From Nitrospinota bacterium (lineage in GTDB: Bacteria; UBA8248), in NCBI GenBank assembly GCA_030754595.1, contig JASLZZ010000062.1:1-39716 (forward strand): a stretch of 39,716 bases of DNA. Direction: 5' to 3'. The notes below the pieces were generated by a model. The model worked only from the letters and a program-made list of their open reading frames with translations. It ran no database searches and was not told where the DNA came from. Positions 8,566 to 39,716 of this stretch are shown here, piece by piece. The position numbers and the translations under genes are program-made. Numbering within the stretch: position 1 is the first letter of the stretch; every line of letters begins with the position of its first letter.

Positions 8566-8622
8566 GCGGATAGCGGGGGTGGAGATTCGCCGGGCCGAAG
8601 CGGCCATCGGCGGCCGGTCTTG

Positions 8623-9318: not shown

Positions 9319-9364
9319 CGAGAAGCATGTCCGGTTGGAGGTCTTCGAGGTTAATGACGCCCAA
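9284..9364 (-). pseudogene. 26-aa 5' fragment of an unrelated small gene abutting the kinase remnant
   Basis: TTG start after GAGG; MGVINLEDLQPDMLLDEDMLARNG resembles the 'I.l.dL.pGM.La.D....nG' N-terminal motif of HD-GYP-associated proteins; stops two codons later. Confidence 0.45.
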
Positions 9365-9555
9365 TTGATGGCCTCGCGGAAGTTGGATTGCTATGCCGGG
9401 ATCAAGAAAATGGATCCTCTGGGCCCGGGGACGGAGGGCATTGAATAGCTAAAAAGAGCAATATATGCACTCTAGTCAACATTCCCAAACTCCGGCCCAA
9501 AATGCAAGCCGATATTAGTTCATTTCGAAAAATATTGGAACTCGGTGCGTATTAA

Positions 9556-9585
9556 TTAAGAAAATTCAAATATTTATCGTATAAT
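9556..9585 (+). promoter_or_regulatory. Putative sigma-70 promoter of the second Mo subunit
   Basis: TTAAGA-N18-TATAAT in AT-rich DNA about 60 nt upstream of the GTG at 9644. Confidence 0.4.
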
Positions 9586-9643
9586 CCGGGAGAAACCTTA
9601 TCGAAAAAATTTAGCCCCTTTTACAACAAGAACGGAGAGATTC

Positions 9644-21867: not shown

Positions 21868-21919
21868 CCCTTTATCTGAAGTTGGCGAAAAAGCGACCTT
21901 ATCGCTCCTTCTCTCCCGT

Positions 21920-22780: not shown

Positions 22781-22858
22781 GACGGACTCCTTAGATTGTG
22801 TGTCGAATGTGGTCCGCGAAGTTCATAGCGCCGGGTAGTGTGGCCGGGTTTGAGTAAA

Positions 22859-23971
22859 TTAGCTGTAAAACCCTCGAATGGCTTGGACCACGTACTCCTG
22901 CGCCTTCTCGGTGATTTCAGGAAACATGGGAAGCGCAAGAACTTCGTTGCTGGCCCTTTCGCTTTCGGGGAAGTCTCCCCTGTTGTAGCCATAGCGCCGA
23001 AAGCAGGGTTGAACATGAAGGGGAAGCGGATAATAAACGCCCGTGGATATTTCCTTTTCTTTCAAACGATCTCTAAGCGAATCCCGGTCGCGAGCCCGTA
23101 TCACATATTGATGGAACACATGATTGTTCCCTGGAATTTCCGGCGGAGCTACAATATCGCCTGAAATGCCCGAATTTTCGAGAAGGGAGTCATAGGTAAG
23201 TGCGTGCGCTCTTCGTTTTGTTGTCCATTCGTCCAGGTATTTCAGTTTGACCTGAAGTACAGCTGCTTGAAGCGTGTCGAGCCGGAAATTGCCTCCTACT
23301 TCCTCGTAAACGTATTTTTCCATGGAGCCGTGGACCCTTAATTTCTTGAGGCGGTTAAACAGTTTTTCGTCTTGCGTGACGACCATCCCGGCGTCACCGA
23401 AAGCCCCCAGATTCTTGGTCGGGAAAAAAGAGTAACAACCCGCATCGCCGATTGCGCCCGCAATCCCCTGGTCCGTCCGTGCTCCAATGGCCTGGGCGGC
23501 ATCCTCCACGATATAGATATCATTTTCTTTTGCGATCTTCAGAAGTGGTTCCATTGAAACGCATCGCCCGAAGAGATGGACGGGTATTATCGCCTTGGTT
23601 TTTTCCGTGATGACTTCTTCCACTTTTGCAACGTCAAGATTAAAGCTCTCCGGCTCGATATCGACGAAAACAGGCCGGGCGCCAAGCCGGACAATTACCC
23701 CGGCGGTCGCAAAAAAAGTAAACGGAGTTGTGATGATTTCGTCTCCCGGGGAAATATTGAGCGCCATCAGGGCGAGCAACAGTGCATCGGTCCCCGACGA
23801 TACGCCGACGGCATGTCGGGCGCCGCAATAGTCGGACAACTCTTTTTCAAGAGCTTCGATCTCCGGTCCTAATATGAATTGCCGGTGAGCCATCACGTTT
23901 TCAATCGCCACATGAATCTCGGCCTGAGTTCGCTCTACTTGGTTCGTTAGGTCGAACTGGGGTACTCGCAT
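22859..23971 (-). CDS. DegT/DnrJ/EryC1/StrS PLP-dependent sugar aminotransferase (WbpE-like)
   Basis: SGTDAL, FTFFATA, PVHLFG, EDAAQA, SFFPTKNLGAFGDAG, NFRLDTLQAA, YYPLPLH. Confidence 0.93.
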   Translation of the reverse strand: MRVPQFDLTNQVERTQAEIHVAIENVMAHRQFILGPEIEALEKELSDYCGARHAVGVSSGTDALLLALMALNISPGDEIITTPFTFFATAGVIVRLGARPVFVDIEPESFNLDVAKVEEVITEKTKAIIPVHLFGRCVSMEPLLKIAKENDIYIVEDAAQAIGARTDQGIAGAIGDAGCYSFFPTKNLGAFGDAGMVVTQDEKLFNRLKKLRVHGSMEKYVYEEVGGNFRLDTLQAAVLQVKLKYLDEWTTKRRAHALTYDSLLENSGISGDIVAPPEIPGNNHVFHQYVIRARDRDSLRDRLKEKEISTGVYYPLPLHVQPCFRRYGYNRGDFPESERASNEVLALPMFPEITEKAQEYVVQAIRGFYS

Positions 23972-24220
23972 GGAAATAAAAAGCCTCTGTTATGTGAGAA
24001 TTAAGCCCGGGCGATTGAAACTCATCAGGAAAATTAGCGAAATTATCTCCCCCGACAATCTGTTTCTGCAATATGCCAATTAGTAAGGCATGAAACAAAC
24101 CCGGAATTTGATCGATGAATTATGGTCAAGAAGCGGGCGACTCGGACATATTTGCTCTTAATGATATATGATGAAGTCGATATTGAAGAAGAACCGCCCT
24201 TTTTGTTTTGAGTTCCCGGT

Positions 24221-25477: not shown

Positions 25478-25598
25478 AGGGGTAATTACGGGGATATCTC
25501 CTAGGGAAATCATCTAGATTAGTTGAAATTCATAGACCGGCACTTTTCAAGGAATTACCGTAATTTTTCCGGCCCAAGAGAAATCCTTCACTTTTTAA

Positions 25599-25657
25599 TT
25601 GACAAGTCCCTTGCTTGTGTGTTCATAATATGAACGATTGAGGTTCATGAAATGAAC
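25599..25657 (+). promoter_or_regulatory. Promoter region with tandem palindromic operator GTTCAT-N3-ATGAAC (two copies)
   Basis: TTGACA at 25599; GTTCATaatATGAAC at 25621-25635 and GTTCATgaaATGAAC at 25643-25657. The first overlaps a CATAAT -10-like hexamer, though the spacer is a non-ideal 19 nt. Confidence 0.75.
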
Positions 25658-25725
25658 ATATATGTGATTGATTTTTAGGAAGATATCATCATGCTTTTGT
25701 GTTCTTTCGCACAACCTTTGGGGGG

Positions 25726-26223
25726 ATGATGGATTGGTATGTGGTTCATACGAAAAGCCGGCATGAACGAATAGTTCGAGATTCCCTGGTTCAGGCTGGT
25801 CATTGCGTATTTCTCCCCGAAAAGGTGGCATGGAGTCGTCGGAGAGACCGCCGCAGGCAAATTTCAATCCCTCTTTTTCCCGGATATCTCTTTGTAGAGC
25901 CAAGCACAAGGGACAACTGGTTGCGTGAGGTCATTACGGTTCGTTCGGTTGTGCGTGTTTTAGGAGTGGATAGTTGTCCTATTCCGATTCCAAGAAGCGA
26001 AATTGATTCTCTTCGAATTCTTGTTGATAGCGGAGAACTATTAGCACCTGTTTCGGGTATATGCCAGGGAGATCGGGTTAGGGTCGAGGAAGGACCGTTT
26101 TCCGGAGCCGAGGGCGTTGTTATTCGCAGAGGTCGTAAATGCCATCTGGTGGTAAATATTTCGCTAATGCAGCGATTCGTTTCGGTGGTTTTGAATGAAA
26201 ATATTTTAGCAAAGGTTTCGTGA
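25726..26223 (+). CDS. UpxY/RfaH/NusG-family transcription antitermination factor
   Basis: WYVVHTKSRHE, PLFPGYLFV (NGN domain), GDRVRVEEGPFSGAEG (KOW). The start is probably ATG 25726 or 25729 rather than 25699. Confidence 0.9.
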   Translation: MMDWYVVHTKSRHERIVRDSLVQAGHCVFLPEKVAWSRRRDRRRQISIPLFPGYLFVEPSTRDNWLREVITVRSVVRVLGVDSCPIPIPRSEIDSLRILVDSGELLAPVSGICQGDRVRVEEGPFSGAEGVVIRRGRKCHLVVNISLMQRFVSVVLNENILAKVS

Positions 26224-26447
26224 ATATCGGGATTCGCAAGGTGACATAGGCCAATGGAGTCTTAAGGTTTAATCGGACTTATTTTCTAGAAGTTATCGAA
26301 AATGATTCGGACTGTTATTGGGGTCTGAACCTCAAGTTGCGTGGATGTAACTACTTGTAATTTAAATGTTTATATGATTTTTGCCATGTAATCGAGAGGG
26401 CGGAGCTATGTCTGCCCCCTTGTTCTGGGCTTATCGGAGTTATTGAT

Positions 26448-27050
26448 TTGCGTAAAGAGGATATCCAGGAACTTAAATTAATGGAGGAAGTATTTAAGAA
26501 CGAAGGGATCGCTACGCAACGGGAACTTGCCCAGAATCTGAATATTTCGCTCGGGCTGGTAAACGCTTTCATCAAACGAATCGTGCGAAAAGGTTACTTC
26601 AAGGTAGCTACGATTCCCGGGCGACGGATGCGTTATCTGCTCACGCCCAAGGGGGTCGCCGAAAAATCTCGCCTTACCGCGGAATATCTTCAGTACTCTC
26701 TTTCCTATTATGTTGAAATTCGCAAGAGGCTAATGCTTTATGCGGAAGAATTAAGGAAAGAGAATGTGCAAAAAGTGGTACTTGTGGGGACAGGGGAGCT
26801 CGCCGAACTTTTTACGCTAGCTCTGCAGCAAGCGAAAATCGAGATTACCCAACTTTTTTCAGAAGATGATAATAACGCTCGCCGGTTTTTAGGTTATCCG
26901 GTCGAGCCTCTAAGCGCTCTCAAGAACTTCGATGAAAAATCGTTCGATAAGATTTGTTTGATAGGGATTGAGGACGTTACATTAGTGCAATCGCGCCTCG
27001 GAGAAATTGGGGATTTGAGGGATCAAATAGTGATTTGCCCTGAATTTTGA
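26448..27050 (+). CDS. Winged-helix (MarR-like, EPS-locus-associated) transcriptional regulator with C-terminal Rossmann-like domain
   Basis: TQRELAQNLNISLGLVN, YLLTPKG..EK..LT..YL, then VVLVGTGELAE; TTG start after GGAG. Confidence 0.88.
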   Translation: MRKEDIQELKLMEEVFKNEGIATQRELAQNLNISLGLVNAFIKRIVRKGYFKVATIPGRRMRYLLTPKGVAEKSRLTAEYLQYSLSYYVEIRKRLMLYAEELRKENVQKVVLVGTGELAELFTLALQQAKIEITQLFSEDDNNARRFLGYPVEPLSALKNFDEKSFDKICLIGIEDVTLVQSRLGEIGDLRDQIVICPEF

Positions 27051-27191
27051 ATAAATGCGTTCCGAAGGAGAGCCTCATTCCTCCGGTTGAAGCGGTGTAA
27101 TTTGAGTTTGAATGTATCTTGAGTATATCCGCTCACCAAAGGTCGAATCGGTTGGATTTTCGATTCCTCCCAACCCATAAAGTCAGGAAAT

Positions 27192-28220
27192 ATGAATGAT
27201 TTCGAAGCTTCGAAAATTGATTTAAACGGGAAAACCGTTCTTGTGACCGGCGGGACCGGTTCATTTGGGAAGCGGCTCGTCCGAACAATATTGGATGCCT
27301 ACGAGCCGCACAGGCTGATTATTTTTTCCAGGGATGAACTCAAGCAAGTTGAAATGCAACGGGTTCTCGAAAAAGGAAAGCGAGATTGCCTCCGGTTTTT
27401 TATTGGTGATGTGCGGGACGCCAGCCGATTGGAAATGGCGATGCGGGAGGTGGACTATGTGGTTCACGCCGCAGCTTTAAAACAGGTGCCGGTCGCCGAA
27501 TACAATCCGTTTGAATGCATTAATACCAATGTGATCGGCGCCCAGAATGTGGTTTGTGCGGCGCTTCAGACAAATGTGAAGCGAGTAATTGCCTTATCAA
27601 GCGACAAGGCGGTGAGCCCCCTAAATTTGTATGGTGCAAGTAAACTCGCGGCTGACAAAATTTTTGTCGCCGCCAACAACCTGAGCGGGTCAATTGGAAC
27701 TCGGTTTTCCGTCGTTAGGTACGGCAACGTAGTTGGCTCTCGGGGGAGCGTGGTTCCGTTTTTTAGAAAGTTGATTGAAGAAGGCGAAAAAGAACTCCCC
27801 ATAACCGATGTGAGAATGACGAGATTTTGGATTACTTTGGACAGAGGAGTAAATTTTGTCCTTTCATGTTTGGAAATGATGAACGGCGGCGAGATTTTTA
27901 TTCCGAAAATACCCAGCATGAAAATTGTTGATTTGGCTACCGCATTGGCTCCGAAGTTGTCCCATCGTATTGTTGGAATCAGGCCGGGAGAGAAAATCCA
28001 CGAGATTCTCATCACCGCGGATGATGCCCGGTCCACATTGGAGCTGAGAGATCGGTATATCATCGAGCCTACCTATGCATCTTGGTCCCAGGATGCTTGT
28101 CTCGATAAAGGCGCTTCAAGGGTGCCTGAGTTGTTTCACTACAGCAGTGATTCGAATAAGGATTGGCTGGATACAAAGGCGATTTTACATATGGTAAACG
28201 AAGGGGCAGAGGCGTTTTAG
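27192..28220 (+). CDS. pseB: UDP-N-acetylglucosamine 4,6-dehydratase (inverting)
   Basis: TGGTGSFG, SRDELKQ, HAAALKQVP.AEYNPFEC, DKA, YGASK, RYGNVVGSRGSVVP, RMTRFWIT, GIRPGEK. Confidence 0.93.
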   Translation: MNDFEASKIDLNGKTVLVTGGTGSFGKRLVRTILDAYEPHRLIIFSRDELKQVEMQRVLEKGKRDCLRFFIGDVRDASRLEMAMREVDYVVHAAALKQVPVAEYNPFECINTNVIGAQNVVCAALQTNVKRVIALSSDKAVSPLNLYGASKLAADKIFVAANNLSGSIGTRFSVVRYGNVVGSRGSVVPFFRKLIEEGEKELPITDVRMTRFWITLDRGVNFVLSCLEMMNGGEIFIPKIPSMKIVDLATALAPKLSHRIVGIRPGEKIHEILITADDARSTLELRDRYIIEPTYASWSQDACLDKGASRVPELFHYSSDSNKDWLDTKAILHMVNEGAEAF

Positions 28221-28233
28221 CCCAAGATTCTGG

Positions 28234-29079
28234 ATGACACGCCCTCGAATCCTCGTCTCCGGCGCGAGCGGCTTGCTCGGGCCTTATTTGGCCATGGCAG
28301 CGAAGGAATGGGGGGACGTTTTTACGACTTCGCGAACAAGCGGAGATTTTCCTGCCGACCTCATCGACCCGGACGAAACGAAGAATTTAATCAAGAAAAC
28401 GGAGCCGTACATACTTGTCAATGCTGCGGGTCTGACGGATGTGGATTTATGTGAAAAAGATCCGCATTTAGCGTCTGATCTCAATACAAACGTAACGGAA
28501 AACCTTGCCGGTTTACTTTCGTCCGGCGCTTGCTTCGTGTGCATTTCAACCGATCAAGTTTATCCCGACTCGCCGGGGCCACATTTCGAAGGTGCGGAAG
28601 CCCCGGTGAATGTATACGGCCGGAGCAAACTCGCTGGAGAGAAGGCGGCTTTGGCTCATCCGGGCGGGCTGGTGTTACGGACGAACTTTTTCGGACCCTC
28701 ACAGACTCCAGGACGCAACAGCTTGAGTGATTTTTTCATTGATAATTTTCGGGCAAAGAAGGAAGTCACTCTTTTTTCGGACGTTTTTTTTTCCCCGCTA
28801 CATATGAAGACGCTGTGTGATTTGATTTTTCGTTCGGTTTCCGAAGGACTGAGGGGCATATACAACCTGGGCTCGAGGGAAGGTACCTCAAAAGCGGAAT
28901 TTGGATTTTCTGTAGCCCGGCACTTTGGACTTAGTACGGAAAAAGCTATCTTGGGAAAAGCGCAATTGCACCCAGACAGGGCGAAACGACCCGCCGATAT
29001 GCGAATGGATGTGACCAAAATCGAAACTGCTTTGAAAACGAAAATGCCGACGCTCGAGGAAGAAATATCCAGACTTTGA
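28234..29079 (+). CDS. RmlD-like NAD(P)H-dependent nucleotide-sugar 4-keto reductase (SDR)
   Basis: GASGLLG, NAAGLTDVDLCE, ISTDQVY, PVNVYGRSKLAGE, LRTNFFG, AKRP. Confidence 0.88.
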   Translation: MTRPRILVSGASGLLGPYLAMAAKEWGDVFTTSRTSGDFPADLIDPDETKNLIKKTEPYILVNAAGLTDVDLCEKDPHLASDLNTNVTENLAGLLSSGACFVCISTDQVYPDSPGPHFEGAEAPVNVYGRSKLAGEKAALAHPGGLVLRTNFFGPSQTPGRNSLSDFFIDNFRAKKEVTLFSDVFFSPLHMKTLCDLIFRSVSEGLRGIYNLGSREGTSKAEFGFSVARHFGLSTEKAILGKAQLHPDRAKRPADMRMDVTKIETALKTKMPTLEEEISRL

Positions 29080-29105
29080 AGGCTCGTTTTTTATCATAAA
29101 GGTGT

Positions 29106-30845
29106 TTGATTGTGAATATTCTTGGTGTTGCTTTTCTTTCAGATGCGTCGGCGGTTGTAATCCGGGATGGGAAGCTCGCAGCAGGTGTGAGTGAGGAGCG
29201 TCTAAACCGTACCAAGCTATGGCACGGGGTGCCGCAGGGCGCCATTAAGGCAGTACTTAATATCGCTGGGTTGGAACTCAAGGATATTGATCTGGTAGCC
29301 ACTCATGGAGAAGCGCCATCCGTACCGGATCCGAAACCTTTCGAGGAGAAGAAAAGTCATATTCGTGAGGCGGATTTGACGGAGGACGTTCGCGATGCGC
29401 AAATTGCCCATATTCAAAGCCGGTTTGAGCATGAACGAATGGTCCTGGGAGAGCGGACTCCCGCATACCTTGCTGAGATTTACTCATTGGGCCGTCCTGT
29501 CAAAATTTACCCCCATCATAAAGCCCATGCGGCCGGCGCATACTTCGGGTCGGGTTGGAATGAATGCTTTGTGTTAACGGCCGATGGTTGGGGAGAAGAT
29601 GCTTCCGCCACTCTTTGGGAAGTGGACAACGGCGAATTAAAAATTATTTCAAGATCGCATACATTCGATTCACTCGGTTATTTTTATGGCAGTGTGACAA
29701 AAGCGCTCGGCTTCACTCCACATCGCCACGAGGGGAAAGTTCTGGGCCTCGCTGCCTACTGTCAAAACCCCCGTTCGTACCTGAAAATTCGGGAAATGAT
29801 TGATTACGATCCCCAAAATCAAAGTTTCATCGGCCGAATGGAAAAAGGTCTTTACGCCCCGCGCTTCGAAAATCAACATTTAAAGGAATTTGTCGCCGAT
29901 TTTCCGCGGGAAGATATTGCGGCTTCCACTCAAAGAGCTTTGGAGGAAGTTGTATGTGAACTTGTATCGGGGTTGGGGTCCGGAAAATTCCGGTTGGCCT
30001 TGGCGGGTGGTGTCTTCGCAAATGTGAAGCTGAATCAACGAATCCGAGAGATTCCGGCGGTAAGCGAAGTATACGTATTTCCAAACATGGGCGACGGCGG
30101 CTTGTCGGCGGGAGCGGCATGGTTGGCGTATTCCGAGACGAATAGTGGCCCTCCTGCGGCAATTAACGGTGTTTTGTTGGGGCATTCTCCAAATGATTCT
30201 GAAATCGATTCAGCTCTTTCGCAAAGCGGTTTGCGCTTTAACCGATGTCCCGGGATTGAAGTCCGTATTGCCGAACTCCTTGCCGAAGGGAACGTGGTGG
30301 CCCGGTGCTCCGGGCCCATGGAGTATGGCCCGCGAGCCCTGGGCAATCGGAGTATCTTTTTCCACGCCGGCGATAAGACCGTTAACGACTGGCTCAACAA
30401 TCAACTTCAACGCTCTGAATTTATGCCGTTCGCGCCAGCGACTTTAGCGGAGTACGCTCACCTTTATTTCAAAGACATTGAAAAAAGCCGGAACGCCTCG
30501 AATTACATGACGATTACTTTTGACTGTACCGAACGAATGCTCAACGAGGCGCCGGCCGCCGTGCATGTTGACGGAACGGCGCGGCCACAGATAGTTTCGC
30601 GTGAACGCTACCCCGAATTTCACAAAATCCTTAGTGCGTACCATGACCTTACAGGCTTTTCCAATATTATCAATACGAGTTTCAATATGCATGAGGAGCC
30701 GATTGTTTGTACTGCAAGTGACGCAGTTCGCGCATTTCGGGATAGCAAATTGCCATATATGGCGTTGGGGAATTATTTGGTGGAAGGGGTGGAAACTATC
30801 TCTTCGTCCGTGGAACATAAAGGACTTCTGTCAAAGAAGGAATAG
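29106..30845 (+). CDS. Carbamoyltransferase (NodU/CmcH/TobZ family)
   Basis: SEERLNR.K, HHKAHA, DGWGE, SLGYFY, EGKVLGLA, AGGVFANVKLN, MEYGPRALGNRS, PFAP, HVDGTARPQ, NTSFN.H.EPIV. Confidence 0.93.
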   Translation: MIVNILGVAFLSDASAVVIRDGKLAAGVSEERLNRTKLWHGVPQGAIKAVLNIAGLELKDIDLVATHGEAPSVPDPKPFEEKKSHIREADLTEDVRDAQIAHIQSRFEHERMVLGERTPAYLAEIYSLGRPVKIYPHHKAHAAGAYFGSGWNECFVLTADGWGEDASATLWEVDNGELKIISRSHTFDSLGYFYGSVTKALGFTPHRHEGKVLGLAAYCQNPRSYLKIREMIDYDPQNQSFIGRMEKGLYAPRFENQHLKEFVADFPREDIAASTQRALEEVVCELVSGLGSGKFRLALAGGVFANVKLNQRIREIPAVSEVYVFPNMGDGGLSAGAAWLAYSETNSGPPAAINGVLLGHSPNDSEIDSALSQSGLRFNRCPGIEVRIAELLAEGNVVARCSGPMEYGPRALGNRSIFFHAGDKTVNDWLNNQLQRSEFMPFAPATLAEYAHLYFKDIEKSRNASNYMTITFDCTERMLNEAPAAVHVDGTARPQIVSRERYPEFHKILSAYHDLTGFSNIINTSFNMHEEPIVCTASDAVRAFRDSKLPYMALGNYLVEGVETISSSVEHKGLLSKKE

Positions 30846-30850
30846 AAATA

Positions 30851-31915
30851 ATGGTTAAATTTGGGGACCGTTCGGTAGGAGATGGCCATCCTTGTTTTAT
30901 TACCTTTGAAGCGGGACCCACGCACGACGGACTGGAATCGGCGAAAAAGCTGGTGGCCTGCGCCGCCGAATCCGGTGCGGATGCCATAAAGTTTCAAGTT
31001 ATCGATCCGGATCGCCTTGTTGCCGACAAATCGGTTCCTTTTAGTTACGATGTGTTGATCGATCGCGAAAGCGGAGCAACTGAAACCGTTACTGAGCCTC
31101 TCTATGACATCCTCTGCCGGCGTGTGTTAAATGCGTGGGAATGGAAAGAACTGAAGCAATATAGCGACTCCCTCGGGCTCGCTTTTTTTGCCACGATCTG
31201 TTTCCCCGAGGAAATCGATATGCTGGTCGAGTTGGGATGCCATTCTATCAAAATCGCGTCGGCGGACGTGAATCACGTGCCGCTGCTCCGGAAAGCGGCC
31301 CGATCGAATTTATGTTTGCAGTTCGATACGGGGAACGCCACGATCGGAGAGATTGAAGCGGCCATCGATATTATCAGGGAAGAAGGAAACGAGAACGTCA
31401 TAATTCATCATTGCCCCTCCGGATATCCCGCACGCATTGAGAGCATCAATCTCAGAATAATCAGGTCGCTCAGGCAAATGTTCGCGTTTCCGATTGGATT
31501 TTCGGATCACTCACCGGGTTGGGACATGGATGTGGCGGCTGTGGTGATCGGAGCGAACCTGGTTGAAAAAACCATTTCGCTGGACAGAACGACGCCGAGC
31601 ATCGAACACATTATGTCGCTGGAGCCATCTGACACGAAGCAGTTTGTGCAGGTCATTAGGGACTTGGAGCAGGCCCTCGGGTCGCCGCGCAGGATTTTGC
31701 ATCCGGCTGAAAAAGAAAAGCGGCAGATTATCAGGCGGAGCGTGCACGCTCTGGAAGATATGGAGGCGGGGAGGGTGTTGGCCGAGTCCGATTTCGATTA
31801 TAGGCGCCCCGGCGACGGGATTCCTCCCTCGGAGGTGGATGCGCTTGTCGGGAAGACGCTCAAAATATCAAAGTCTCAGGGCGATCGGATCGAGTGGACG
31901 GGTATCAATCTGTAA
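30851..31915 (+). CDS. N-acetylneuraminate synthase family protein (NeuB/SpsE-like, divergent)
   Basis: GADAIKFQ, IKIASAD, HC.SGYP, GFSDHS, EK.ISLDR, SLEP, RRS and C-terminal SAF domain (RPGDGI). Confidence 0.9.
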   Translation: MVKFGDRSVGDGHPCFITFEAGPTHDGLESAKKLVACAAESGADAIKFQVIDPDRLVADKSVPFSYDVLIDRESGATETVTEPLYDILCRRVLNAWEWKELKQYSDSLGLAFFATICFPEEIDMLVELGCHSIKIASADVNHVPLLRKAARSNLCLQFDTGNATIGEIEAAIDIIREEGNENVIIHHCPSGYPARIESINLRIIRSLRQMFAFPIGFSDHSPGWDMDVAAVVIGANLVEKTISLDRTTPSIEHIMSLEPSDTKQFVQVIRDLEQALGSPRRILHPAEKEKRQIIRRSVHALEDMEAGRVLAESDFDYRRPGDGIPPSEVDALVGKTLKISKSQGDRIEWTGINL

Positions 31916-31930
31916 TAATAGAGAGTTGCC

Positions 31931-32551
31931 ATGACTAATTCGTCTGTCGCGGTAATTGATTACGGAATGGGCAATATCAGGTCGGTGTTGAATGCTCTTG
32001 AAGAGGTGGGAGCGGGGGGGGTGCTGGTCGATAATCCGGAGTATTTGGGTTCTTTTGAAAAGGCCATCCTTCCCGGAGTGGGCGCTTTTCAGGAGGCGAT
32101 GGAAAACCTGAACGAGAGCGGAATGACGGAGGCTCTCAACGCCCATGTCTCCCGGGGAAATCAATTATTGGGCGTTTGCCTCGGAATGCAACTCATATGC
32201 CTGGACTCGGAAGAAAACGGTTTCCATGAAGGCCTCGGTTATTTGAATGCCCATGTCGTCTCATTTCCTCAAGTGGCCGGATTGAAAGTGCCCCACATGG
32301 GCTGGAATGCCATCGAATTTCGACAGGGCCATGCGGTATTTTCGGATATCGAAACCGGAAGTGATGTTTACTTTGTCCATTCGTACAATGTGCAGTGTGC
32401 GGATGAATCCAATGTGCTGGCGACTTCGAATTACGGTGTTCCTTTCGTTTCCATCGCGGCAAGCGGTAATGTTTTAGGTATGCAATTTCATCCCGAAAAA
32501 AGCCAAGGCGTGGGATTGCATCTTCTTCGGAATTTTGTTGCCCTTAAATAA
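31931..32551 (+). CDS. hisH: Glutamine amidotransferase, HisH paralog associated with glycan loci (WbuY-like)
   Basis: IDYGMGN, ILPGVGAF, GVCLGMQ, VPHMGWN, YFVHSY, QFHPEKS. Confidence 0.92.
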   Translation: MTNSSVAVIDYGMGNIRSVLNALEEVGAGGVLVDNPEYLGSFEKAILPGVGAFQEAMENLNESGMTEALNAHVSRGNQLLGVCLGMQLICLDSEENGFHEGLGYLNAHVVSFPQVAGLKVPHMGWNAIEFRQGHAVFSDIETGSDVYFVHSYNVQCADESNVLATSNYGVPFVSIAASGNVLGMQFHPEKSQGVGLHLLRNFVALK

Positions 32552-32573
32552 ATTTCGAGTTTCTCGCCGTTAG

Positions 32574-33359
32574 GTGTTTCCTTTGCTAAAGAAACGTCTC
32601 ATCGCCGTTTTAATCCTCCGGCAGGGTCAGGTGGTCCAAAGCATTCGATTCAAGCATACGAACGTCATTCACTACGACGCTGTTCACGCGATTGAAGCGT
32701 TCAATAAATGGGCCATTGACGAAATCGTCATCCTGAATGTAACGCGCGATGAAAGTTCGCGCGATCAGTTCGCCGAGGTGGTTTCCAACGTCTCAAGGCA
32801 TTGTTTTGTCCCCTTAACCGCGGGTGGCTGGATCGGAGACGAGGACTATGCCAAACGTTTATTGCGAAGCGGGGCGGATAAATTGGTTCTCAATACCGCA
32901 GTGGCGGATAATCCGGACCTTGTCCGGACTCTTTCGAAACGCTACGGCCGCCAGTGTATTGTGGCTTCAATCGATGCGAAACGGACCGAGGGGGGAGATG
33001 TCCGGGTTGCAGTTGATCGCGGCCGGAAAATGACCGACTCGGACCCTGTCATGTGGGCGCAAAAGTCGCGCGATCTTGGGGCGGGGGAAATTTTTTTCAA
33101 CTCAATCGATCATGACGGCGCGCGCAAGGGATACGACCTGAAAACATTGACCGAAATTTGCGGGGCGGTTGATCTGCCAGTGATCGCTTTTGGCGGCGTA
33201 TTCACATGGGACCATTTGGCCGAAGGAATCTGCGCGGGCTCGGACGCCGCCGCGGCGGCCAATATTTTCCACTACACGGAGCAGAGCACTAAAAAAGCGA
33301 AATCCTTTCTCGCGAAGGCCGGGATTCCAGTTCGCAAGGAAGGCCGGCATGGGGCTTAG
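32574..33359 (+). CDS. hisF: HisF paralog associated with glycan loci (WbuZ-like ammonia tunnel subunit)
   Basis: DEIVIL, VPLTAGG, GADK, YG.QCIVASIDAK, GAGEI..NSIDHDG...GYD, PVIAFGG. The catalytic Asp of the usual CLD motif is absent (LIAVLIL). Confidence 0.9.
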   Translation: MFPLLKKRLIAVLILRQGQVVQSIRFKHTNVIHYDAVHAIEAFNKWAIDEIVILNVTRDESSRDQFAEVVSNVSRHCFVPLTAGGWIGDEDYAKRLLRSGADKLVLNTAVADNPDLVRTLSKRYGRQCIVASIDAKRTEGGDVRVAVDRGRKMTDSDPVMWAQKSRDLGAGEIFFNSIDHDGARKGYDLKTLTEICGAVDLPVIAFGGVFTWDHLAEGICAGSDAAAAANIFHYTEQSTKKAKSFLAKAGIPVRKEGRHGA

Positions 33360-33406
33360 TCTCTCTCTCTTCATTTAACTTTTTTAATCATATCTGGGGA
33401 AATAAC

Positions 33407-34699
33407 TTGGAATATTGCGCTAGATGCATGTACCCGGCGAACGCCAAACCAACCATCATTATGGATGACGAAGGCGTTTGCAGCGGATGCAGGTACCACG
33501 AGAGCCGCGGGGGGCTTGAGATTAGCTGGGATGAGCGGGAGAAAATGCTCGCTCAGATTCTCGACGAAGCCAAAGTAATGGCCCGTGAGCGGGGAAATTC
33601 ACACGATTGCATTGTCCCTATAAGCGGAGGAAAAGATTCCCACTATCAGGTATGGCTCCTGAAAGAAAAATACGGGATGAATCCCCTTCTGGTGAAGTTC
33701 AATCATGCTTTCAATGCCCCCTCCGGGATTAGAAATCTTGAAAATCTTGTGTCGAAGTCAGGTTTTGACCTGATTCGATATACGGCGGGACTGGATTCGG
33801 TCAGGCGAATATCGAAGTACATGCTGGAAACGGTGGGAGACGTGACCTGGCATTATCATGCCGGTATTCGGACCTTTCCCTTTCAGGTGGCGGTAAATTA
33901 TAACATTCCCCTCATTGTATGGGGAGAACATGGGTTTGCCGAACTCACCGGTTTGGTGACGCTGGAGGATTTCGTTGAGTTCACGAAATGGACACGCAAG
34001 GAACACGACATGCGTGGATTCGAACCTAATGACCTGGTGGGAAAAGGTGGAATCACGGAAAAGGATATCGCCCCGTATGTCTATCCCACCGACGATAAAA
34101 TCGCGGAAACGGAAGTCCGCGGAATCTACCTAAGCAATTTTGTCGTGTGGGACGCAAAGTGTCAGGGCGAAACGATGCAGGAAAAGTGGGACTTCGCCCC
34201 CATCACCTACAAGCGGGACCGCACGTTTAACATATATGCGAAAATCGATGACCATGCGAACGATGTCCACGATTATTTGAAATACTTGAAATTCGGTTAT
34301 GGGCGGGCCACGGATGACGCGAGCATCGAAATTCGCCACGGGCGGATGACGCGGGAAGAAGGCATTGAGATGGTAAGGCAATACGATGCAACCGAGCCTT
34401 CAACGTTGGCCATGTACTGCGATTTTCTGGGCATGAAGACCGAGGATTTTTATAAGCTTGTGGAACCGATGAGGGATCCGTCTGTGTGGGAAAAGTTAAA
34501 CGATGGTCCCTGGAAACCGAAAGACAGCATTACCCGGCATGAAATCGAGGCTTCCGAGGAGGCGGCGCGCGTTTCCCAGTCCGAGGATAGAACCTTCGCG
34601 CCGCACAACATGCATCTTTATTATAACGAAGCGTCTCCTCCCGAGAAAACCGGTGATCCCAGGTTGGACGAATTTCCGAGAAAATTCCAAATTCTATAA
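33407..34699 (+). CDS. N-acetyl sugar amidotransferase (WbuX/PseA/WbpG family)
   Basis: N-terminal CARC...CSGC, PP-loop DCIVPISGGKDS, WGE, HDYLKYLKFGYGRATDDAS.EIR.G.MTREEG. Confidence 0.92.
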   Translation: MEYCARCMYPANAKPTIIMDDEGVCSGCRYHESRGGLEISWDEREKMLAQILDEAKVMARERGNSHDCIVPISGGKDSHYQVWLLKEKYGMNPLLVKFNHAFNAPSGIRNLENLVSKSGFDLIRYTAGLDSVRRISKYMLETVGDVTWHYHAGIRTFPFQVAVNYNIPLIVWGEHGFAELTGLVTLEDFVEFTKWTRKEHDMRGFEPNDLVGKGGITEKDIAPYVYPTDDKIAETEVRGIYLSNFVVWDAKCQGETMQEKWDFAPITYKRDRTFNIYAKIDDHANDVHDYLKYLKFGYGRATDDASIEIRHGRMTREEGIEMVRQYDATEPSTLAMYCDFLGMKTEDFYKLVEPMRDPSVWEKLNDGPWKPKDSITRHEIEASEEAARVSQSEDRTFAPHNMHLYYNEASPPEKTGDPRLDEFPRKFQIL

Positions 34700-34762
34700 A
34701 TCGGGCGGAGGAAGCCGAAAATCCTCCGGCCGGCAAATATCATCCAGGCGAGGAAATGACCG

Positions 34763-35386
34763 GTGACGAAGCAGTTGGATCTGTGGCGTTCTGAATTTGG
34801 CAGCGAATATTCCAAACGGAATAACAACAGGATTACGGAAGAAGATAATCAGCGCCTCATGCAGGACTGGGGGAAAATTCTTGGGCATGCCGTCACCCCT
34901 AAGCCGAAAAGCGTTTTGGAGGTTGGCTGCAATATCGGCCGAAACCTCGTAGCGCTGCGTCATTTCGCGGATGAGATTCATGCCGTGGAGCCGAATCCGG
35001 CTGCATGCCAGGCCGTCCGGGAAAATCCCGTGCTAAAGGATGTTGTCATCAAGGAGGGTGACGGATTCAGCCTTCCCTATGGCGACGAGGAAATCGATCT
35101 CGTTTTTACGTCGGGAGTTTTGATTCATGTCGCGCCGGATGATCTCGGCAGGATGGTCGATGAAATTTTCCGGGTTGCTCGCCATTACATCGTTTGCACC
35201 GAGTATTTTTCTCATGAACCCGAAGAAGTGAAATATCGGGACATGGAAGGGTACTTGTTCAAAAGGGACTTTGGCCGTTTCTATATGGAGCGGCATTCCG
35301 GCTTGCGCGTCCTTGATTACGGCTTCTTGTGGCAACCATTGGACTCCAGCGATGACAGCAACTGGTGGCTTTTTGCAAAACGGTAG
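34763..35386 (+). CDS. Pseudaminic acid biosynthesis-associated SAM methyltransferase
   Basis: W..EFG.EY..RN, SVLEVGCNIG.NL, DLVFTSGVLIH, EYF, LFKRDF, LDYGF. Confidence 0.88.
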   Translation: MTKQLDLWRSEFGSEYSKRNNNRITEEDNQRLMQDWGKILGHAVTPKPKSVLEVGCNIGRNLVALRHFADEIHAVEPNPAACQAVRENPVLKDVVIKEGDGFSLPYGDEEIDLVFTSGVLIHVAPDDLGRMVDEIFRVARHYIVCTEYFSHEPEEVKYRDMEGYLFKRDFGRFYMERHSGLRVLDYGFLWQPLDSSDDSNWWLFAKR

Positions 35387-35401
35387 GGACCGTTCAAGCC
35401 G

Positions 35402-36124
35402 ATGACTCAGGGTCGGGTATTGGGGCTGATTCCCGCCAAGGGCGGTTCAACTCGCCTCCCGCGTAAAAACATCCTCTCCCTTGGGGGGCGTCCGCTGATT
35501 GCCTGGACGGTGGAGGCGGCCCGCGAAAGCGGTGTGATTGATCGGCTGATTGTTTCTACCGAGGATCATGAAGTGGCCGATATCGCAAGTAGCCTTGGAG
35601 CCGAAATTCCGTTTATGCGGCCTCCGGAACTGGCACGGGATCCGGCCGGCGTGGTGGATGTCGCGCTTCATGTCCTGGATGAGCTAGAGCGATCTGGTGA
35701 TCGGTTCGAATCCTTGATTATTTTGATGCCGACATGCCCGTTCCGGAATGCCGATGATATTCGGGCGGCGTACGCCTCCTTCCGTGAGAATCATTGGTCA
35801 TTTTTGATGAGCGTTTCCCGGTTCGGTCATACCCCATTTGCGGCGATGGGACTGGGTGAGAACGATAAGTTGACGCCATATTTCCCCAACCATACCGGAA
35901 AAAAATCCCAGGAACTTCCCCCAGCGTATCGGCCGAACGGCGCGATTCAGATTCTCGATGTCGAAGCTTTTCAAAGAGAAAAAACGTATTTTGGCGAACC
36001 GCTTTTTGGGTATGAAATGCCGATTGAGCGATCAATTGATATTGATAGCGCGGAAGATCTTCGATTCGCTGAAGTGACTATTTCCTCGAGGGGCTCTCCA
36101 GAGGCTCGCGGCGGCCATGAGTAA
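35402..36124 (+). CDS. pseF: Acylneuraminate / pseudaminate cytidylyltransferase (NeuA/PseF family)
   Basis: IPAKGGSTRLPRKN, VSTED, PFMRP.ELA.D, PTCPFR, SQELP..Y..NGA, SIDIDS.ED. Confidence 0.82.
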   Translation: MTQGRVLGLIPAKGGSTRLPRKNILSLGGRPLIAWTVEAARESGVIDRLIVSTEDHEVADIASSLGAEIPFMRPPELARDPAGVVDVALHVLDELERSGDRFESLIILMPTCPFRNADDIRAAYASFRENHWSFLMSVSRFGHTPFAAMGLGENDKLTPYFPNHTGKKSQELPPAYRPNGAIQILDVEAFQREKTYFGEPLFGYEMPIERSIDIDSAEDLRFAEVTISSRGSPEARGGHE

Positions 36125-37193
36125 TCCTGCCTTTAAGCGGACCGCGATATTTCGCACCGAGGCCTCTCCGGAAATCGGGGGAGGACATCTGATTCGGTGC
36201 CTATCTCTCGCGGACGGTCTTTCGAAGGAAGGGTGGAAATGTGTATTCGCGGCAACGGGAAAAACCCCGGACACCGTACCCGCGCTAAGTGACTCTGGCC
36301 ATACCATCCAAATTTTGAGCGGCCCCGCCGAGGATGAGCCGGCCGATATCGCTTCGAAATGGGGCGATGGATACGTCTTTCTCGTTGTTGACCATTACGG
36401 GCGCGATATAAATTTCGAAGGGGCATGCCGCTCCTGGGCGGATGGAATTCTTGTCATCGACGATTTGGCCAATCGGGCTCATGATTGTGATTTGCTATTG
36501 GATCAGACCTTGGGAAGAGTCCGGGAAGACTACGCTCCGAGCGTCAATCGAGAATGCCGGATGCTTCTGGGGCCTGATTACGCACTGCTTCGGGACCAGT
36601 TTCCGGCGGCCCGAAAAGAGGCGTTGTCCCGCCGCATGAAGGCCGGCGCCGTCCGGCGAATTCTAATTAGTCTCGGTGCGACCGACCTGGAGGACGTAAA
36701 TAGCCTGATTCTTCAGGGAGTTGCCCGATCGGGAGCGGACGCGGAGGTGGATGTAGTAATGGGTTCTCAATCCCCCAATCTGGCAAAAGTCAAAAAAATT
36801 GCCGAGGGGATGCCCCGAAAGGTGAGGGTTCTTACCGATGTGAGCGATATGGCCGCGCTTATGGCCTCGGCGGATCTATCGGTGGGCGCGGCCGGGGTTT
36901 CCACCTGGGAGCGATGTTGTCTCGGGCTCCCGTCGATTGTGATTATTCGGGCCGAAAGCCAACGTCTTCAAGGACACTTTGTAAAAAAGAACGGCTTGGG
37001 GATGGTCCTCGGATGGACCCATGAGGTTTCAGAAGTGGATATCTCGAGCGCCGTTACGCTGCTGGTGGAGAATTCCGATCGCCGCCAAGAAATCGGTAAT
37101 GCCGCTTCGGCCGCATGCGATGGCCGGGGGGTGAAGCGGACGGTCCGGGAAATCGATAAACTTGCCAGACCCAAGAGTTTAAGTGTGGGATGA
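36117..37193 (+). CDS. pseG: UDP-2,4-diacetamido-2,4,6-trideoxy-beta-L-altropyranose hydrolase
   Basis: FRTEASPEIGGGHLIRCLSLA, VVDHY, IDDLANR.HDCD, GPDYALLR, LGATD, GAAG.STWERCCLGLP. No fused PseH domain. Confidence 0.9.
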   Translation: MSNPAFKRTAIFRTEASPEIGGGHLIRCLSLADGLSKEGWKCVFAATGKTPDTVPALSDSGHTIQILSGPAEDEPADIASKWGDGYVFLVVDHYGRDINFEGACRSWADGILVIDDLANRAHDCDLLLDQTLGRVREDYAPSVNRECRMLLGPDYALLRDQFPAARKEALSRRMKAGAVRRILISLGATDLEDVNSLILQGVARSGADAEVDVVMGSQSPNLAKVKKIAEGMPRKVRVLTDVSDMAALMASADLSVGAAGVSTWERCCLGLPSIVIIRAESQRLQGHFVKKNGLGMVLGWTHEVSEVDISSAVTLLVENSDRRQEIGNAASAACDGRGVKRTVREIDKLARPKSLSVG

Positions 37194-37236
37194 AGAGGGA
37201 GCCGTCTAAAGGGCCCCGATAATCTCCGGTGACGCG

Positions 37237-38328
37237 ATGGAAGTGAAAGAAATTAAAATTGACGGACACCTCATAGGACCTTCTCATCCACCCTATATCG
37301 TGGCCGAGATGTCGGGAAATCATAATGGAGATATCGGCCGTGCGTTTCAGATTATGGAGGCGGCGAAGAAGGCCGGCGCTCATGCGGTCAAGATTCAAAC
37401 CTATACGGCCGATACGATAACTCTTGATCATGACGGCCCGGAATTCTTTATCGAAGGTGGGCTCTGGGACGGAAAAAAACTCTACGACCTTTACAAATGG
37501 GCACACACGCCGTGGGAGTGGCACGAAGCTCTTTTCGGGAAGGGAAAGGAGTTGGGTCTCGCGGTTTTCAGCACGCCTTTTGACGACACGGCAGTTGATT
37601 TTCTCGAAGACCTGAATTCGCCCGCATATAAAATAGCTTCATTCGAGGCAATTGATCTTCCTCTGATTGCCAAGGTTGCCGCAACGGGGAAGCCGATGAT
37701 CATCTCCACCGGAATGGCCACCTTCGATGAAATTTGCGAGGCCACGGAAACCGCGCGCGATAGCGGATGCGGTGGTTTGGTGCTCCTCCATTGCGTCAGC
37801 GGGTATCCGACATCGGTGGAGGACAGCAACCTGCGCACAATCCCCGATCTCGCCGAGAAATTCGGCGTCATAGCCGGGCTGTCGGACCACACCCTGGGCC
37901 CTGCCGTACCGGTGGCCGGTGTGGCCCAGGGCGCGTGTTTAATTGAAAAACACCTCACTCTCAAGAGGTCGGACGGTGGCCCGGACGCTGCATTTTCTTT
38001 GGAGCCGGAGGAGTTGGAAAAACTTTGTGGCGGGTGCGTTCAGGCGTGGGAGTCATTGGGCTGTGTGAATTACGATATTAAACTGAGCGAGGATCATAAT
38101 CAGATATTCAGGAGATCCATTTATGTGGTCGAGGATATTTCATCCGGAGAAGAGTTGACGACGAAAAATATTCGGTCGATTCGCCCGGGAAACGGTCTTC
38201 ATCCCAAGGAGCTTCCAAATGTCCTCGGCCGGCACGCGCTGAATAACATGAAACGGGGAACGGGATTGCAGTGGGAGGATATATCTTCTACCGGCGCCGA
38301 ATCCGGGGAAAGCCAAAAATCTGATTGA
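37237..38328 (+). CDS. pseI: Pseudaminic acid synthase
   Basis: AEMSGNHNG, KIQTYTADTIT, GLWDG..LYDLY..AHTPWEWH, YKIASFE, GLSDHT, GGPD.AFSLEP, FRRS, SAF domain. Confidence 0.93.
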   Translation: MEVKEIKIDGHLIGPSHPPYIVAEMSGNHNGDIGRAFQIMEAAKKAGAHAVKIQTYTADTITLDHDGPEFFIEGGLWDGKKLYDLYKWAHTPWEWHEALFGKGKELGLAVFSTPFDDTAVDFLEDLNSPAYKIASFEAIDLPLIAKVAATGKPMIISTGMATFDEICEATETARDSGCGGLVLLHCVSGYPTSVEDSNLRTIPDLAEKFGVIAGLSDHTLGPAVPVAGVAQGACLIEKHLTLKRSDGGPDAAFSLEPEELEKLCGGCVQAWESLGCVNYDIKLSEDHNQIFRRSIYVVEDISSGEELTTKNIRSIRPGNGLHPKELPNVLGRHALNNMKRGTGLQWEDISSTGAESGESQKSD

Positions 38329-38458
38329 ACTCTTCTTTGAGGAATCGATTGATAACAGTTGATGCCCTTCATCTGACACATGGTTCAATGAGTATTGTTT
38401 TTAATGAACGCCTAAACCGATTGCTAGTAGGAGCAGGTGGTTCTGAAAGGGGACATGG

Positions 38459-39511
38459 ATGAACGATTCCGAAAAACCTGGGCGCCTGGCGCTTCCCAAG
38501 TTCGTGGAAGAGAGACAAAAAGTCGCCGAAAAAGGCCAACTTTGGGATCGATATGCGGAGTCTATTAAAAATACCGTTTTAAGCGAAGCTCCTCCGGTTC
38601 CGAATTCCATGCTTGTTGAAGTAGCGAATATTTGTAATCACAAATGCGCTTTTTGCGCCTATCCGTTGATGACCCGGCCGAGTCAGGTCATTGACCCGAA
38701 ATTTTTCAAGAGTATCGCTATGCAAGCTTATGAACTCGGGGTGCGCGAGGTAGGTCTTCACGGAGGAAGCGAACCCTTGGCCTGCAAGCAGCTTGAGGGT
38801 CACATCGCTACGTGCCGGGACCTGGGTTTCAGTTACATATATTTTTCGACCAACGGTTCGCTGGGCGATGAAAAAAGGTTCAAGACCATAATGGATTCGG
38901 GCGTTCATTCGATTAAATTCTCGATCAACGGAGGGGACCGGGAAACCTACAAGGAAATCCATGGGCGGGATCATTTCGACAAAGCCCTCAATAATTTGGC
39001 GTTTATCAGTGGGTACCGAAAATCATGCCCACAAGAGATCATGTTGTCGGTGTCGTTTATCGAGGTTCCGGAGAATGCGGCCTCCCTGCCGGCGCTCCAA
39101 AAAGCGGTTTTGCATCTGGTCGACGAGATTTTCCATGTCTCGGCGAACAACCAGTCTGGCCAGATGCTCAATTTGCAGGTTTCGACACATCTTCCCGACA
39201 CCTGTCAGATTCCCTTTAATCAGATCAACATCACTCGGGAAGGATATCTCAGGGGGTGTTGCAACGATTATCAGAACGTGTTGGCCATGGTGGACCTCAA
39301 TGAAATTTCGCTTAAGGAAGCTTGGGCCGGGGGGCATTTCCGCTCGTTCCGCCGCCGCCATTTGGCCGGAGATCTGGTCGGTACGCTTTGCCACAATTGC
39401 ATTCATGGTGTAAACGAACCGGCTGCTCCGCTTCGCCCCGAACTCGGCGATTGGGGCATCCTCGGGGAAGACGACCGGAATATTATCCAGGTGGGCGTTC
39501 CGAAGTCATAA
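38459..39511 (+). CDS. Radical SAM protein with SPASM/twitch domain
   Basis: CNHKCAFC (CxxxCxxC), GSEPL, STNG; C-terminal CQIPF...GCC.D...CHNC; AAAGGGG RBS. Confidence 0.9.
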   Translation: MNDSEKPGRLALPKFVEERQKVAEKGQLWDRYAESIKNTVLSEAPPVPNSMLVEVANICNHKCAFCAYPLMTRPSQVIDPKFFKSIAMQAYELGVREVGLHGGSEPLACKQLEGHIATCRDLGFSYIYFSTNGSLGDEKRFKTIMDSGVHSIKFSINGGDRETYKEIHGRDHFDKALNNLAFISGYRKSCPQEIMLSVSFIEVPENAASLPALQKAVLHLVDEIFHVSANNQSGQMLNLQVSTHLPDTCQIPFNQINITREGYLRGCCNDYQNVLAMVDLNEISLKEAWAGGHFRSFRRRHLAGDLVGTLCHNCIHGVNEPAAPLRPELGDWGILGEDDRNIIQVGVPKS

Positions 39512-39716
39512 TAATCCACATTATGCGGCGGACCAGAGCAAAATGAGGCCGGAATCCTCGTAACCATATGATATGATTGGCCAAAATCGCCCGGGCGAGA
39601 GGATGTCAGATGCCCGGAGATGGTGGCAGCCAAAAAGAGGCCCTACGGCCCAACTTCGACCGCTCTATCATAATTGATTTCCGGGGCGCGAAGATAAGCT
39701 CCGACACGGGTTTTCT

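Follow-up and report, generated by a model that had tools for sequence, protein, structure and literature searches.

A pseudaminic acid-like operon of a Nitrospinota bacterium with a predicted reductase and a carbamoyltransferase-like gene in the place of pseC

Introduction

Cytidine monophosphate (CMP)-pseudaminic acid is made in Campylobacter jejuni and Helicobacter pylori by PseB, PseC, PseH, PseG, PseI, and PseF (TIGR03584 to TIGR03590). To our knowledge, almost every bacterial 9-deoxy nonulosonate bears nitrogen at C7; fusaminic acid is the 7-hydroxy example. Here, we report a 12-gene operon that resembles those for pseudaminic acid (Pse), found in a Nitrospinota bacterium on a contig of 39,716 nucleotides (GenBank assembly GCA_030754595.1, contig JASLZZ010000062.1; this whole stretch is called the window), in which an RmlD-like reductase and a carbamoyltransferase-like protein are predicted to stand in for PseC and PseH.

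Fusobacterium nucleatum 25586 is reported to contain both 6-deoxy-L-N-acetylaltrosamine (6-deoxy-L-AltNAc) and 7-hydroxylated fusaminic acid, the latter with a 7-OH, 5-acetamidino, 9-deoxy skeleton from 6-deoxy-L-altrosamine (PMC9912281, PMC13014188), which differs from Pse at C4 (PMC9912281). A gene table for strain ATCC 25586 places the RmlD-like FN1685 between NeuB-domain genes in FN1682 to FN1686 (PMC4045943, Table 4). Neither a carbamoylated nonulosonate nor an assigned fusaminic acid pathway was found in the literature searched, which is thin in the subscription journals where glycan structures often appear. A C10 ulosonic acid of Magnetospirillum, as described in a preprint (bioRxiv 10.64898/2026.04.20.719630), could not be tied to this locus.

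Results

The window is complete contig C62 of a 3.55-Mb genome (138 contigs; 97% complete, 6.4% contaminated). The + strand carries 12 co-oriented open reading frames (ORFs) between 27192 and 39511, with intergenic gaps, in order, of 13, 26, 5, 15, 22, 47, 63, 15, −8, 43, and 130 nt. The order given in the first-pass annotation (pseB, rmlD-like, carbamoyltransferase, neuB-like, hisH, hisF, wbuX-like, methylase, pseF-like, pseG, pseI, and radical SAM) was confirmed, and its names agree with our family scans (NCBIfam, with scores given as bits/cut-off; Pfam for domains). A Pfam scan of the ORFs of the run likewise bore out that it holds no aminotransferase and no GNAT acetyltransferase. A contig from an independent sequencing run covers 24349 to 33257 (pseB to hisF) with 2 differences, and a congener (genome G001) shows the identical gene order, so the arrangement is not an assembly artifact; 3 other DNA runs cover 30/30 bins. 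The feature is real and not a product of chance.

The first-pass annotation had allowed that pseC and pseH lie elsewhere in the genome. Across the whole genome, in an incomplete assembly, the PseC model matched four DegT-family proteins, none of which passed the 423.5-bit cut-off (best, 253 bits). The PseH model TIGR03585 matched nothing in the genome, which is a weak test, as PseC-bearing controls also fall under its cut-off; tblastn of the genome with five GNATs of related loci, three of them fused and two free, found nothing at E <= 1e-4. One of the four DegT proteins lies in the window (22859..23971, − strand), 3.2 kb upstream of the run and opposite to it. It is divergent, WbpE/QdtB-like rather than PseC (251 bits against 423.5; best solved relatives include QdtB and WbpE), and 29 to 31% identical to the in-locus PseC proteins of related operons. 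Congener G001, which carries the same operon at 85 to 96% identity in an island on one 77-kb contig, has this divergent DegT as the single match in its genome. Its island also carries 3-dehydrogenase-like and hexapeptide-acetyltransferase genes, partners that would presumably give the divergent DegT a WbpE-type role. Two further DegT matches lie in tandem on contig C29, in a separate sugar locus (L206:298-9878) that also has HldE-like, SIS, and E1 dehydrogenase alpha/beta genes along with several epimerases and may serve a branched-chain amino sugar.

Related loci were collected by a genome scan with the first NeuB of the run (30851), which confirmed 180 relatives; the best 80 of the 180 loci were analyzed, with at most 10 kb on each side. 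Among their DegT-like proteins, 58/68 pass the PseC cut-off, and 57 of the 67 pseB-containing loci have a PseC over the cut-off, in 48 cases directly after pseB. The closest operons (Kiloniellaceae, Pelagibius) share the gene order of the window, with 62 to 74% identity in six core genes. PseG carries a fused C-terminal GNAT in 10 of the 16 PseG proteins tested (in locus L112, the GNAT is a separate gene), and the window PseG ends at the point where the fused GNAT of its relatives starts. The reductase and carbamoyltransferase genes fill the slot that pseC holds in related operons. Since the relatives have pseC after pseB and a PseG-GNAT fusion and the window has neither, we take both pseC and the acetyltransferase to have been lost here, with the reductase and carbamoyltransferase in the pseC slot, in agreement with the earlier proposal of a reductase in place of PseC.

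The close clade of the carbamoyltransferase occurs in 4/80 loci, from two congeners, a Methyloligellaceae genome (L061), and a Tagaea genome (L106). PseC is absent from all four loci and under the cut-off across their genomes, and the reductase is present in three, lying on an adjoining contig in the fourth. The combination of pseB, rmlD-like, carbamoyltransferase, and neuB genes, for which a search for recurrence had been proposed, is found in two unrelated alphaproteobacterial genomes without PseC. By whole-genome search, PseC exceeded its cut-off in 0/5 swap genomes versus 3/3 control genomes. A 67-row FastTree of pseB plus NeuB makes a PseC-bearing Kiloniellaceae group the sister of the window pair (support, 91) and a PseC locus that of L061 (99), without resolving L106; because the swap loci fall at three places in this tree, the swap appears to have arisen repeatedly. 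Elsewhere, the close carbamoyltransferase clade was found in 3/51 genomes of its own phylum (all congeners, including this one), in 0/78, 1/50 (the known Tagaea locus), 0/127, and 0/91 genomes of four alphaproteobacterial orders, in 0/5 further genomes, and in none of the viral contigs or plasmids searched. Seven other pseB loci also have no pseC, and of the six tested, PseC lay elsewhere in the genome in four, only as broken matches in one, and nowhere in one. Supply of PseC in trans therefore exists, judging from these searches, but not in the swap genomes.

The reductase (28234..29079, + strand; PF04321) is an RmlD-like short-chain dehydrogenase/reductase (SDR) and the proposed 4-keto reductase replacing PseC. 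It keeps the nucleotide-binding glycine motif and Y128xxxK132 but failed the RmlD equivalog test (TIGR01214, 127/224 bits), and the run holds no rml genes. A quick 97-row tree places it in a group of 22 rows together with reductases from other nonulosonate loci (L037, L061, L106, L029, L117, L119, and L121, each with a NeuB nearby). The group also includes metagenome locus L120, in which the reductase directly precedes a carbamoyltransferase gene, and L118, with no NeuB in 5.4 kb; most RmlDs of rml operons lie outside it. A genome of the same family (G027) has pseB, the altered NeuB described below, pseF, a related reductase, and another NeuB, and neither a PseC over the cut-off nor a close carbamoyltransferase in the whole genome. 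By gene content, it looks like a plain 7-OH version of the route, so the reductase route can exist without the carbamoyltransferase. Of 80 loci from a metagenome scan with the reductase, only 3 were close. Viral matches to the reductase were discarded, being distant (at most 41%) with none in a swap locus among the matches listed.

The carbamoyltransferase-like protein (29106..30845, + strand) belongs to the CmcH/NodU family (PF02543 and PF16861) and is the proposed PseH replacement. Its iron ligands H137, H141, D160, and D330 are kept in 119/119 homologues and match H133, H137, D156, and D333 of GdmN. K-to-L and R-to-M changes, considered as special to the clade, were rejected because they occur in 140/150 wider relatives.

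Several observations weigh against the swap as we read it. For about 36 kb of the congener's island, this assembly holds no matching sequence, and TIGR03585 had to be discarded as proof that PseH is absent, its PseC-bearing control genomes being likewise below cut-off. Three of five tested genomes with a pseC-less locus have PseC over the cut-off elsewhere. Both unrelated swap loci, L061 and L106, retain a GNAT, and L061 also has a class-III aminotransferase and a UDP (uridine diphosphate)-N-acetylglucosamine (GlcNAc) 2-epimerase; only three independent swap lineages were seen. Support for the reductase group is only 83 (Shimodaira-Hasegawa-like approximate likelihood ratio test) in a quick tree, and two RmlDs of rml operons form its sister branch. 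Finally, H27 of GdmN is the proposed general base (PMC9633730), and the equivalent position, which aligns with the N-terminal His of a NovN-type structure, is Ser12 here and S/A/T/P in 116/119 close homologues. A His near this position is kept in 93/135 scorable wider relatives, and the genome has two other carbamoyltransferases elsewhere, both with it. The clade has invariant residues of its own, which could stand in for the missing His. The first-pass call of a carbamoyltransferase thus stands for both Pfam domains and the His-His-Asp-Asp iron site and does not extend to the general base; because that His is replaced, O-carbamoylation is not assured, and the acceptor and reaction would seem less certain than the Pfam name implies.

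The first NeuB of the run (30851..31915, + strand) is a noncanonical paralogue with an altered active site. It scores below both cut-offs (NeuB model, 248/400; PseI model, 210/340), and its structural model (predicted local distance difference test score, 89) has a TIM barrel and an antifreeze-like domain, with PseI 8H2C and NeuB 1XUU as best matches. Residues are numbered by alignment to Neisseria meningitidis NeuB. One study calls the two manganese histidines and the three phosphoenolpyruvate (PEP)-phosphate serines of NeuB fully conserved (PMC11339185). In the clade of the altered NeuB, His236 is replaced by Thr/Ser and Ser154 by Asp in 81/81 members (Thr241 and Asp159 in the window), and the His236 position is Thr/Ser in 120/120 homologues as well, whereas the His is kept in 74/74 other NeuB proteins from the loci. 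This invariant replacement speaks against an ordinary synthase, as which the gene had first been read. A canonical second NeuB lies within the available DNA in 64/81 altered-NeuB loci. We read PseI (37237) as the probable synthase and the altered NeuB as a putative accessory enzyme. Our boldest guess is a C4 epimerase or retro-aldolase, because fusaminic acid differs from Pse at C4. As a marker of a 7-OH route, the altered NeuB was rejected because it mostly occurs with PseC.

Another NeuB clade sits beside RmlD-like reductases (L029:2924-4036, L117:1847-2686, L119:1517-2581, and L121:4821-5357), an adjacency that matches FN1684/FN1685 of F. nucleatum; the members aligned have Asp at the conserved Glu25 position, and the clade is a candidate for a fusaminic-type synthase. 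Varying combinations of a Gfo/Idh/MocA oxidoreductase, a class-III aminotransferase, and a GNAT lie beside the altered NeuB in L047, L051, L052, L061, L065, L070, and others, a set that could, we presume by analogy with 8-amino-3-deoxy-D-manno-octulosonic acid (8-amino-Kdo), add an extra amino group to a nonulosonate. Downstream in congener G001 lie glycosyltransferase genes, an O-antigen-ligase-like gene, and a third NeuB with a KdsC-like phosphatase. This NeuB and phosphatase, together with a second CMP-transferase and a DapA-family aldolase (L026:6658-8246, L027:18147-19800), suggest a second ulosonate; nothing close to the third NeuB was found in this assembly.

The remaining genes, all on the + strand, begin with PseB (27192..28220), the inverting UDP-GlcNAc 4,6-dehydratase (TIGR03589, 528/408; S-D-K and YxxxK motifs). 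The acetamidino trio comprises a HisH-like glutaminase (31931..32551; TIGR01855, 227/105; Cys and FHPE motifs), a HisF/WbuZ-like protein (32574..33359; TIGR03572, 232/300, and NF038364, 189 bits, both under cut-off), and a WbuX/PseA-type N-acetyl sugar amidotransferase (33407..34699; TIGR03573, 332/203; SGGKDS motif), which fit the formation of an acetamidino group. They are followed by a Pse-associated methyltransferase (34763..35386; TIGR03587, a hypothetical equivalog, 149/112), a PseF-like CMP-nonulosonate synthetase (35402..36124; TIGR03584, 186/206; 57 to 63% identical to PseF of syntenic PseC loci), the PseG UDP-sugar hydrolase without a fused GNAT (36117..37193; TIGR03590, 239/154; GGH and DHY align with C. 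jejuni PseG), and the canonical synthase PseI (37237..38328; TIGR03586, 496/340; both manganese histidines present). The last gene (38459..39511), named radical SAM in the first pass, has radical SAM and SPASM domains with CxxxCxxC and SPASM/twitch cysteines. The name can be refined to BtrN-like from its best solved relative (E, 9e-14, both domains), and the product is a possible sugar dehydrogenase or epimerase; BtrN-type enzymes oxidize a sugar or cyclitol alcohol. In the congener, a 311-aa (amino acid) methyltransferase (L026:18148-19080) lies between pseI and the radical SAM gene, where the window has 130 nt (38329-38458). Directly after its radical SAM gene, the congener also has a 551-aa gene (L026:15197-16849) with no Pfam or NCBIfam match, whose language-model neighbors include LIC12162-like clusters (a lead only). 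It is a candidate nonulosonate transferase and does not align with the Tagaea candidate.

The operon is led by genes for a UpxY-type antiterminator and an exopolysaccharide (EPS)-associated MarR regulator (25699..27050, + strand; NF033644, 100.3/100; TIGR04176, 58/88), and marR also precedes pseB in related loci. This lead-in and the neighboring glycosyltransferases point to an operon that serves a surface polysaccharide. The genome has one flagellin N-domain match, and no Maf-type transferase was found in it or in the congener. With a guanine-plus-cytosine (GC) content of 48 to 57% in the operon genes versus 60% in the genome and alphaproteobacterial operons as nearest relatives, the operon was likely acquired horizontally. 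A promoter scan was at chance level (10 found, 14.9 expected), and one RNA run gave 8 short contigs, which does not show expression. Near-identical DNA occurs in at least 20 runs from at least 12 studies (seawater, marine, or hydrothermal vent metagenome), 4 of the runs being possible sources.

Elsewhere in the window, the contig breaks in a dispersed repeat of about 200 bp (39508..39716), with 19 genome matches including itself, 16 of them within 500 bp of a contig end; read depth is 50 to 126 in the last bin of the window versus 2 to 22 elsewhere. Positions 20062-25477 hold a WecA-like/CoA (coenzyme A)-binding fusion (601 aa), followed on the opposite strand by a PEP-mutase-family gene and the DegT gene and, after these, by a GT4 gene; this set is conserved in the congener. 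Two large subunits of the molybdopterin xanthine-dehydrogenase family (760 and 767 aa) lie with an acyl-CoA dehydrogenase at 5023-11947, and an OB-fold plus HD-domain protein, YhaM-like by domain order, at 1890-2972 on the − strand.

Discussion

The proposed pathway would start with PseB, whose family suggests conversion of UDP-GlcNAc to the L-arabino 4-keto-6-deoxy sugar. The RmlD-like enzyme would reduce C4 to give UDP-6-deoxy-L-AltNAc, replacing amination by PseC, and the carbamoyltransferase-like enzyme may carbamoylate the new 4-OH, the carbamate mimicking the shape of the N-acetyl group added by PseH; this is the weakest step. By family, PseG would strip UDP, PseI would condense the sugar with PEP, and PseF would activate it with CMP. 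HisH, HisF, and WbuX would convert the 5-N-acetyl to an acetamidino group, which the methylase may methylate; such N-methylation is an analogy from Campylobacter and Legionella. Accessory steps would fall to the altered NeuB and the radical SAM protein. The predicted product is a 5-acetamidino-7-O-carbamoyl-3,5,9-trideoxy-nonulosonic acid (calculated 335.133 Da; 349.149 Da if methylated). From the gene content, we consider it probable that the operon makes a 7-oxygenated nonulosonate of fusaminic type in one form or another, and we hold it about evenly balanced whether this is the CMP-activated 7-O-carbamoyl, 5-acetamidino, 9-deoxy sugar, for a surface polysaccharide. The first-pass annotation had proposed a sugar not recognized as described. 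Because the 7-OH, 5-acetamidino skeleton is known as fusaminic acid, novelty would be limited to the carbamoyl/methyl decoration or a Pse-type C4.

The carbamoyl group may sit elsewhere: the nonulosonate could keep a free 7-OH, as fusaminic acid or as the C4 epimer with Pse configuration (292.127 Da if it bears the acetamidino group), with the carbamoyltransferase acting on O4 or O8 of the nonulosonate or on a different sugar within the polymer. The 7-OH of fusaminic acid is free (PMC9912281), G027 has a related reductase without a PseC over the cut-off or a close carbamoyltransferase, and the genome has its two other carbamoyltransferases. Yet the gene occupies the pseC slot only 26 nt after the reductase, follows a related reductase directly in L120, and accompanies PseC in 0/4 of its loci among the 80, as expected if it needs the new 4-OH; we find the free 7-OH rather doubtful. 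A bolder extension of our scheme, which we rate unlikely, joins the 7-O-carbamoyl-5-(N-methyl)acetamidino nonulosonate, as a new class, to an altered NeuB that, with its Asp in the PEP-phosphate site and a rebuilt metal site, would bind the finished alpha-keto acid and invert its C4 by retro-aldol/aldol chemistry to the L-gluco form of fusaminic acid, while the BtrN-like enzyme may oxidize or epimerize a further center. If true, the altered NeuB would have the NeuB fold without acting as a PEP synthase and would supply the step that is lacking on the way to 4-epi-pseudaminic and fusaminic acids.

Ordinary Pse would result if pseC and pseH lay in the unassembled part or if a nonorthologous DegT (for example, 22859-23971) aminated C4, leaving the reductase and carbamoyltransferase as a side branch. 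The contig does end in a repeat with the island incomplete in a genome 97% complete and 6.4% contaminated, PseC is supplied in trans in 3/5 other tested genomes, and four DegT matches are at hand. Against this, the congener, whose island lies on a single 77-kb contig, shows no DegT match other than the divergent WbpE/QdtB-like one with its own partners, the C29 pair sits in a different sugar locus (HldE-like, SIS, E1-dehydrogenase), the GNAT of PseG was lost together with pseC, and PseC is in 0/5 swap genomes, which makes ordinary Pse quite unlikely. It seems very unlikely, too, that the reductase and carbamoyltransferase make only a UDP-6-deoxy-L-AltNAc or acetamidino (NAm) donor, possibly carbamoylated, beside decaying or idle nonulosonate genes. 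Although PseF is under its cut-off and 6-deoxy-L-AltNAc is a polymer residue in F. nucleatum 25586, the hexose and the nonulosonate co-occur there (PMC13014188), and pseG, pseI, and pseF are intact with their catalytic motifs, 87 to 89% conserved in the congener, and kept in both unrelated swap loci. Nitrogen might instead reach C4 independently of pyridoxal phosphate, by carbamoylation beside the 4-keto group, cyclization, and SDR reduction to a 7-amino or 7-ureido sugar. The carbamoyltransferase clade without the general-base His has its own invariant residues, and two swap loci keep a GNAT, but the SDR has ordinary RmlD motifs, O3 would have to be freed as the ring oxygen, and related reductases occur without the carbamoyltransferase. 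We know of no precedent for such nitrogen installation in sugar-nucleotide chemistry. Even with the carbamate-to-ketone cyclization that a figure legend describes for GdmN products (PMC9633730), this route is extremely improbable.

All claims about the product are predictions from sequence. This natural gene-for-gene swap, set against close PseC-bearing relatives, names candidate enzymes, namely a reductase for 7-OH sugars and one whose carbamate may mimic the acetamido group, and the exact masses above could be sought in marine biomass. Annotation of pseB, pseG, and pseI does not imply pseudaminic acid. The altered NeuB is a widespread paralogue whose changed active site suggests new chemistry.

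Comparison with known systems

N. meningitidis NeuB and C. jejuni PseI share the fold and the dimer domain with the altered NeuB, which has equivalents of the N. meningitidis residues Glu25, Lys53, Gln55, Lys129, Ser132, Ser213, His215, Glu234, and Arg314. It differs from both in its Thr/Ser for His236, Asp for Ser154, and Glu for Asp247 and in an extra invariant His186. Carbamoyltransferases of the TobZ, GdmN, and NovN type (CmcH/NodU) have the Kae1-like and YrdC-like domains of the window protein (E, 4e-59 to 4e-52) and its iron ligands; in the window, the general-base His is replaced, and the lysine of K-x-R is Leu, a change common to 140/150 wider relatives. RmlD, the deoxythymidine diphosphate (dTDP)-4-dehydrorhamnose reductase, has its SDR motifs in common with the window reductase, which has neither the equivalog score nor an rmlABC neighborhood.

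Judged from its gene table, FN1682 to FN1686 of the fusaminic acid producer F. nucleatum also has an RmlD-like gene in a NeuB locus, as does the window, which is without PseC; unlike the window, the table lists a GNAT and no carbamoyltransferase there (PMC4045943, Table 4). Fusaminic acid, unlike the proposed product, has no carbamoyl group in the reported structure and has a C4 opposite to that of Pse.

The Kiloniellaceae/Pelagibius operons (L039, L040, L041, L059, L071, and L112) are the closest and have the same core order as the window, which is pseB, altered NeuB, acetamidino trio, methylase, pseF, pseG, and pseI, with the 62 to 74% identity holding for pseB, NeuB, hisF, wbuX, methylase, and pseI. 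Unlike the window, they have pseC behind pseB and a PseG-GNAT fusion (two separate genes in L112) and no reductase or carbamoyltransferase. With the CMP-Pse pathway, the window has PseB, PseG, PseI, and the methylase in common over their cut-offs, along with PseF-like and acetamidino genes; it differs in that no PseC and no PseH-like GNAT were found and in the added reductase, carbamoyltransferase, altered NeuB, and radical SAM protein. Since the tests for PseC and PseH failed, it is not a member of the canonical pseudaminic acid pathway, but it is a pathway that works like it.

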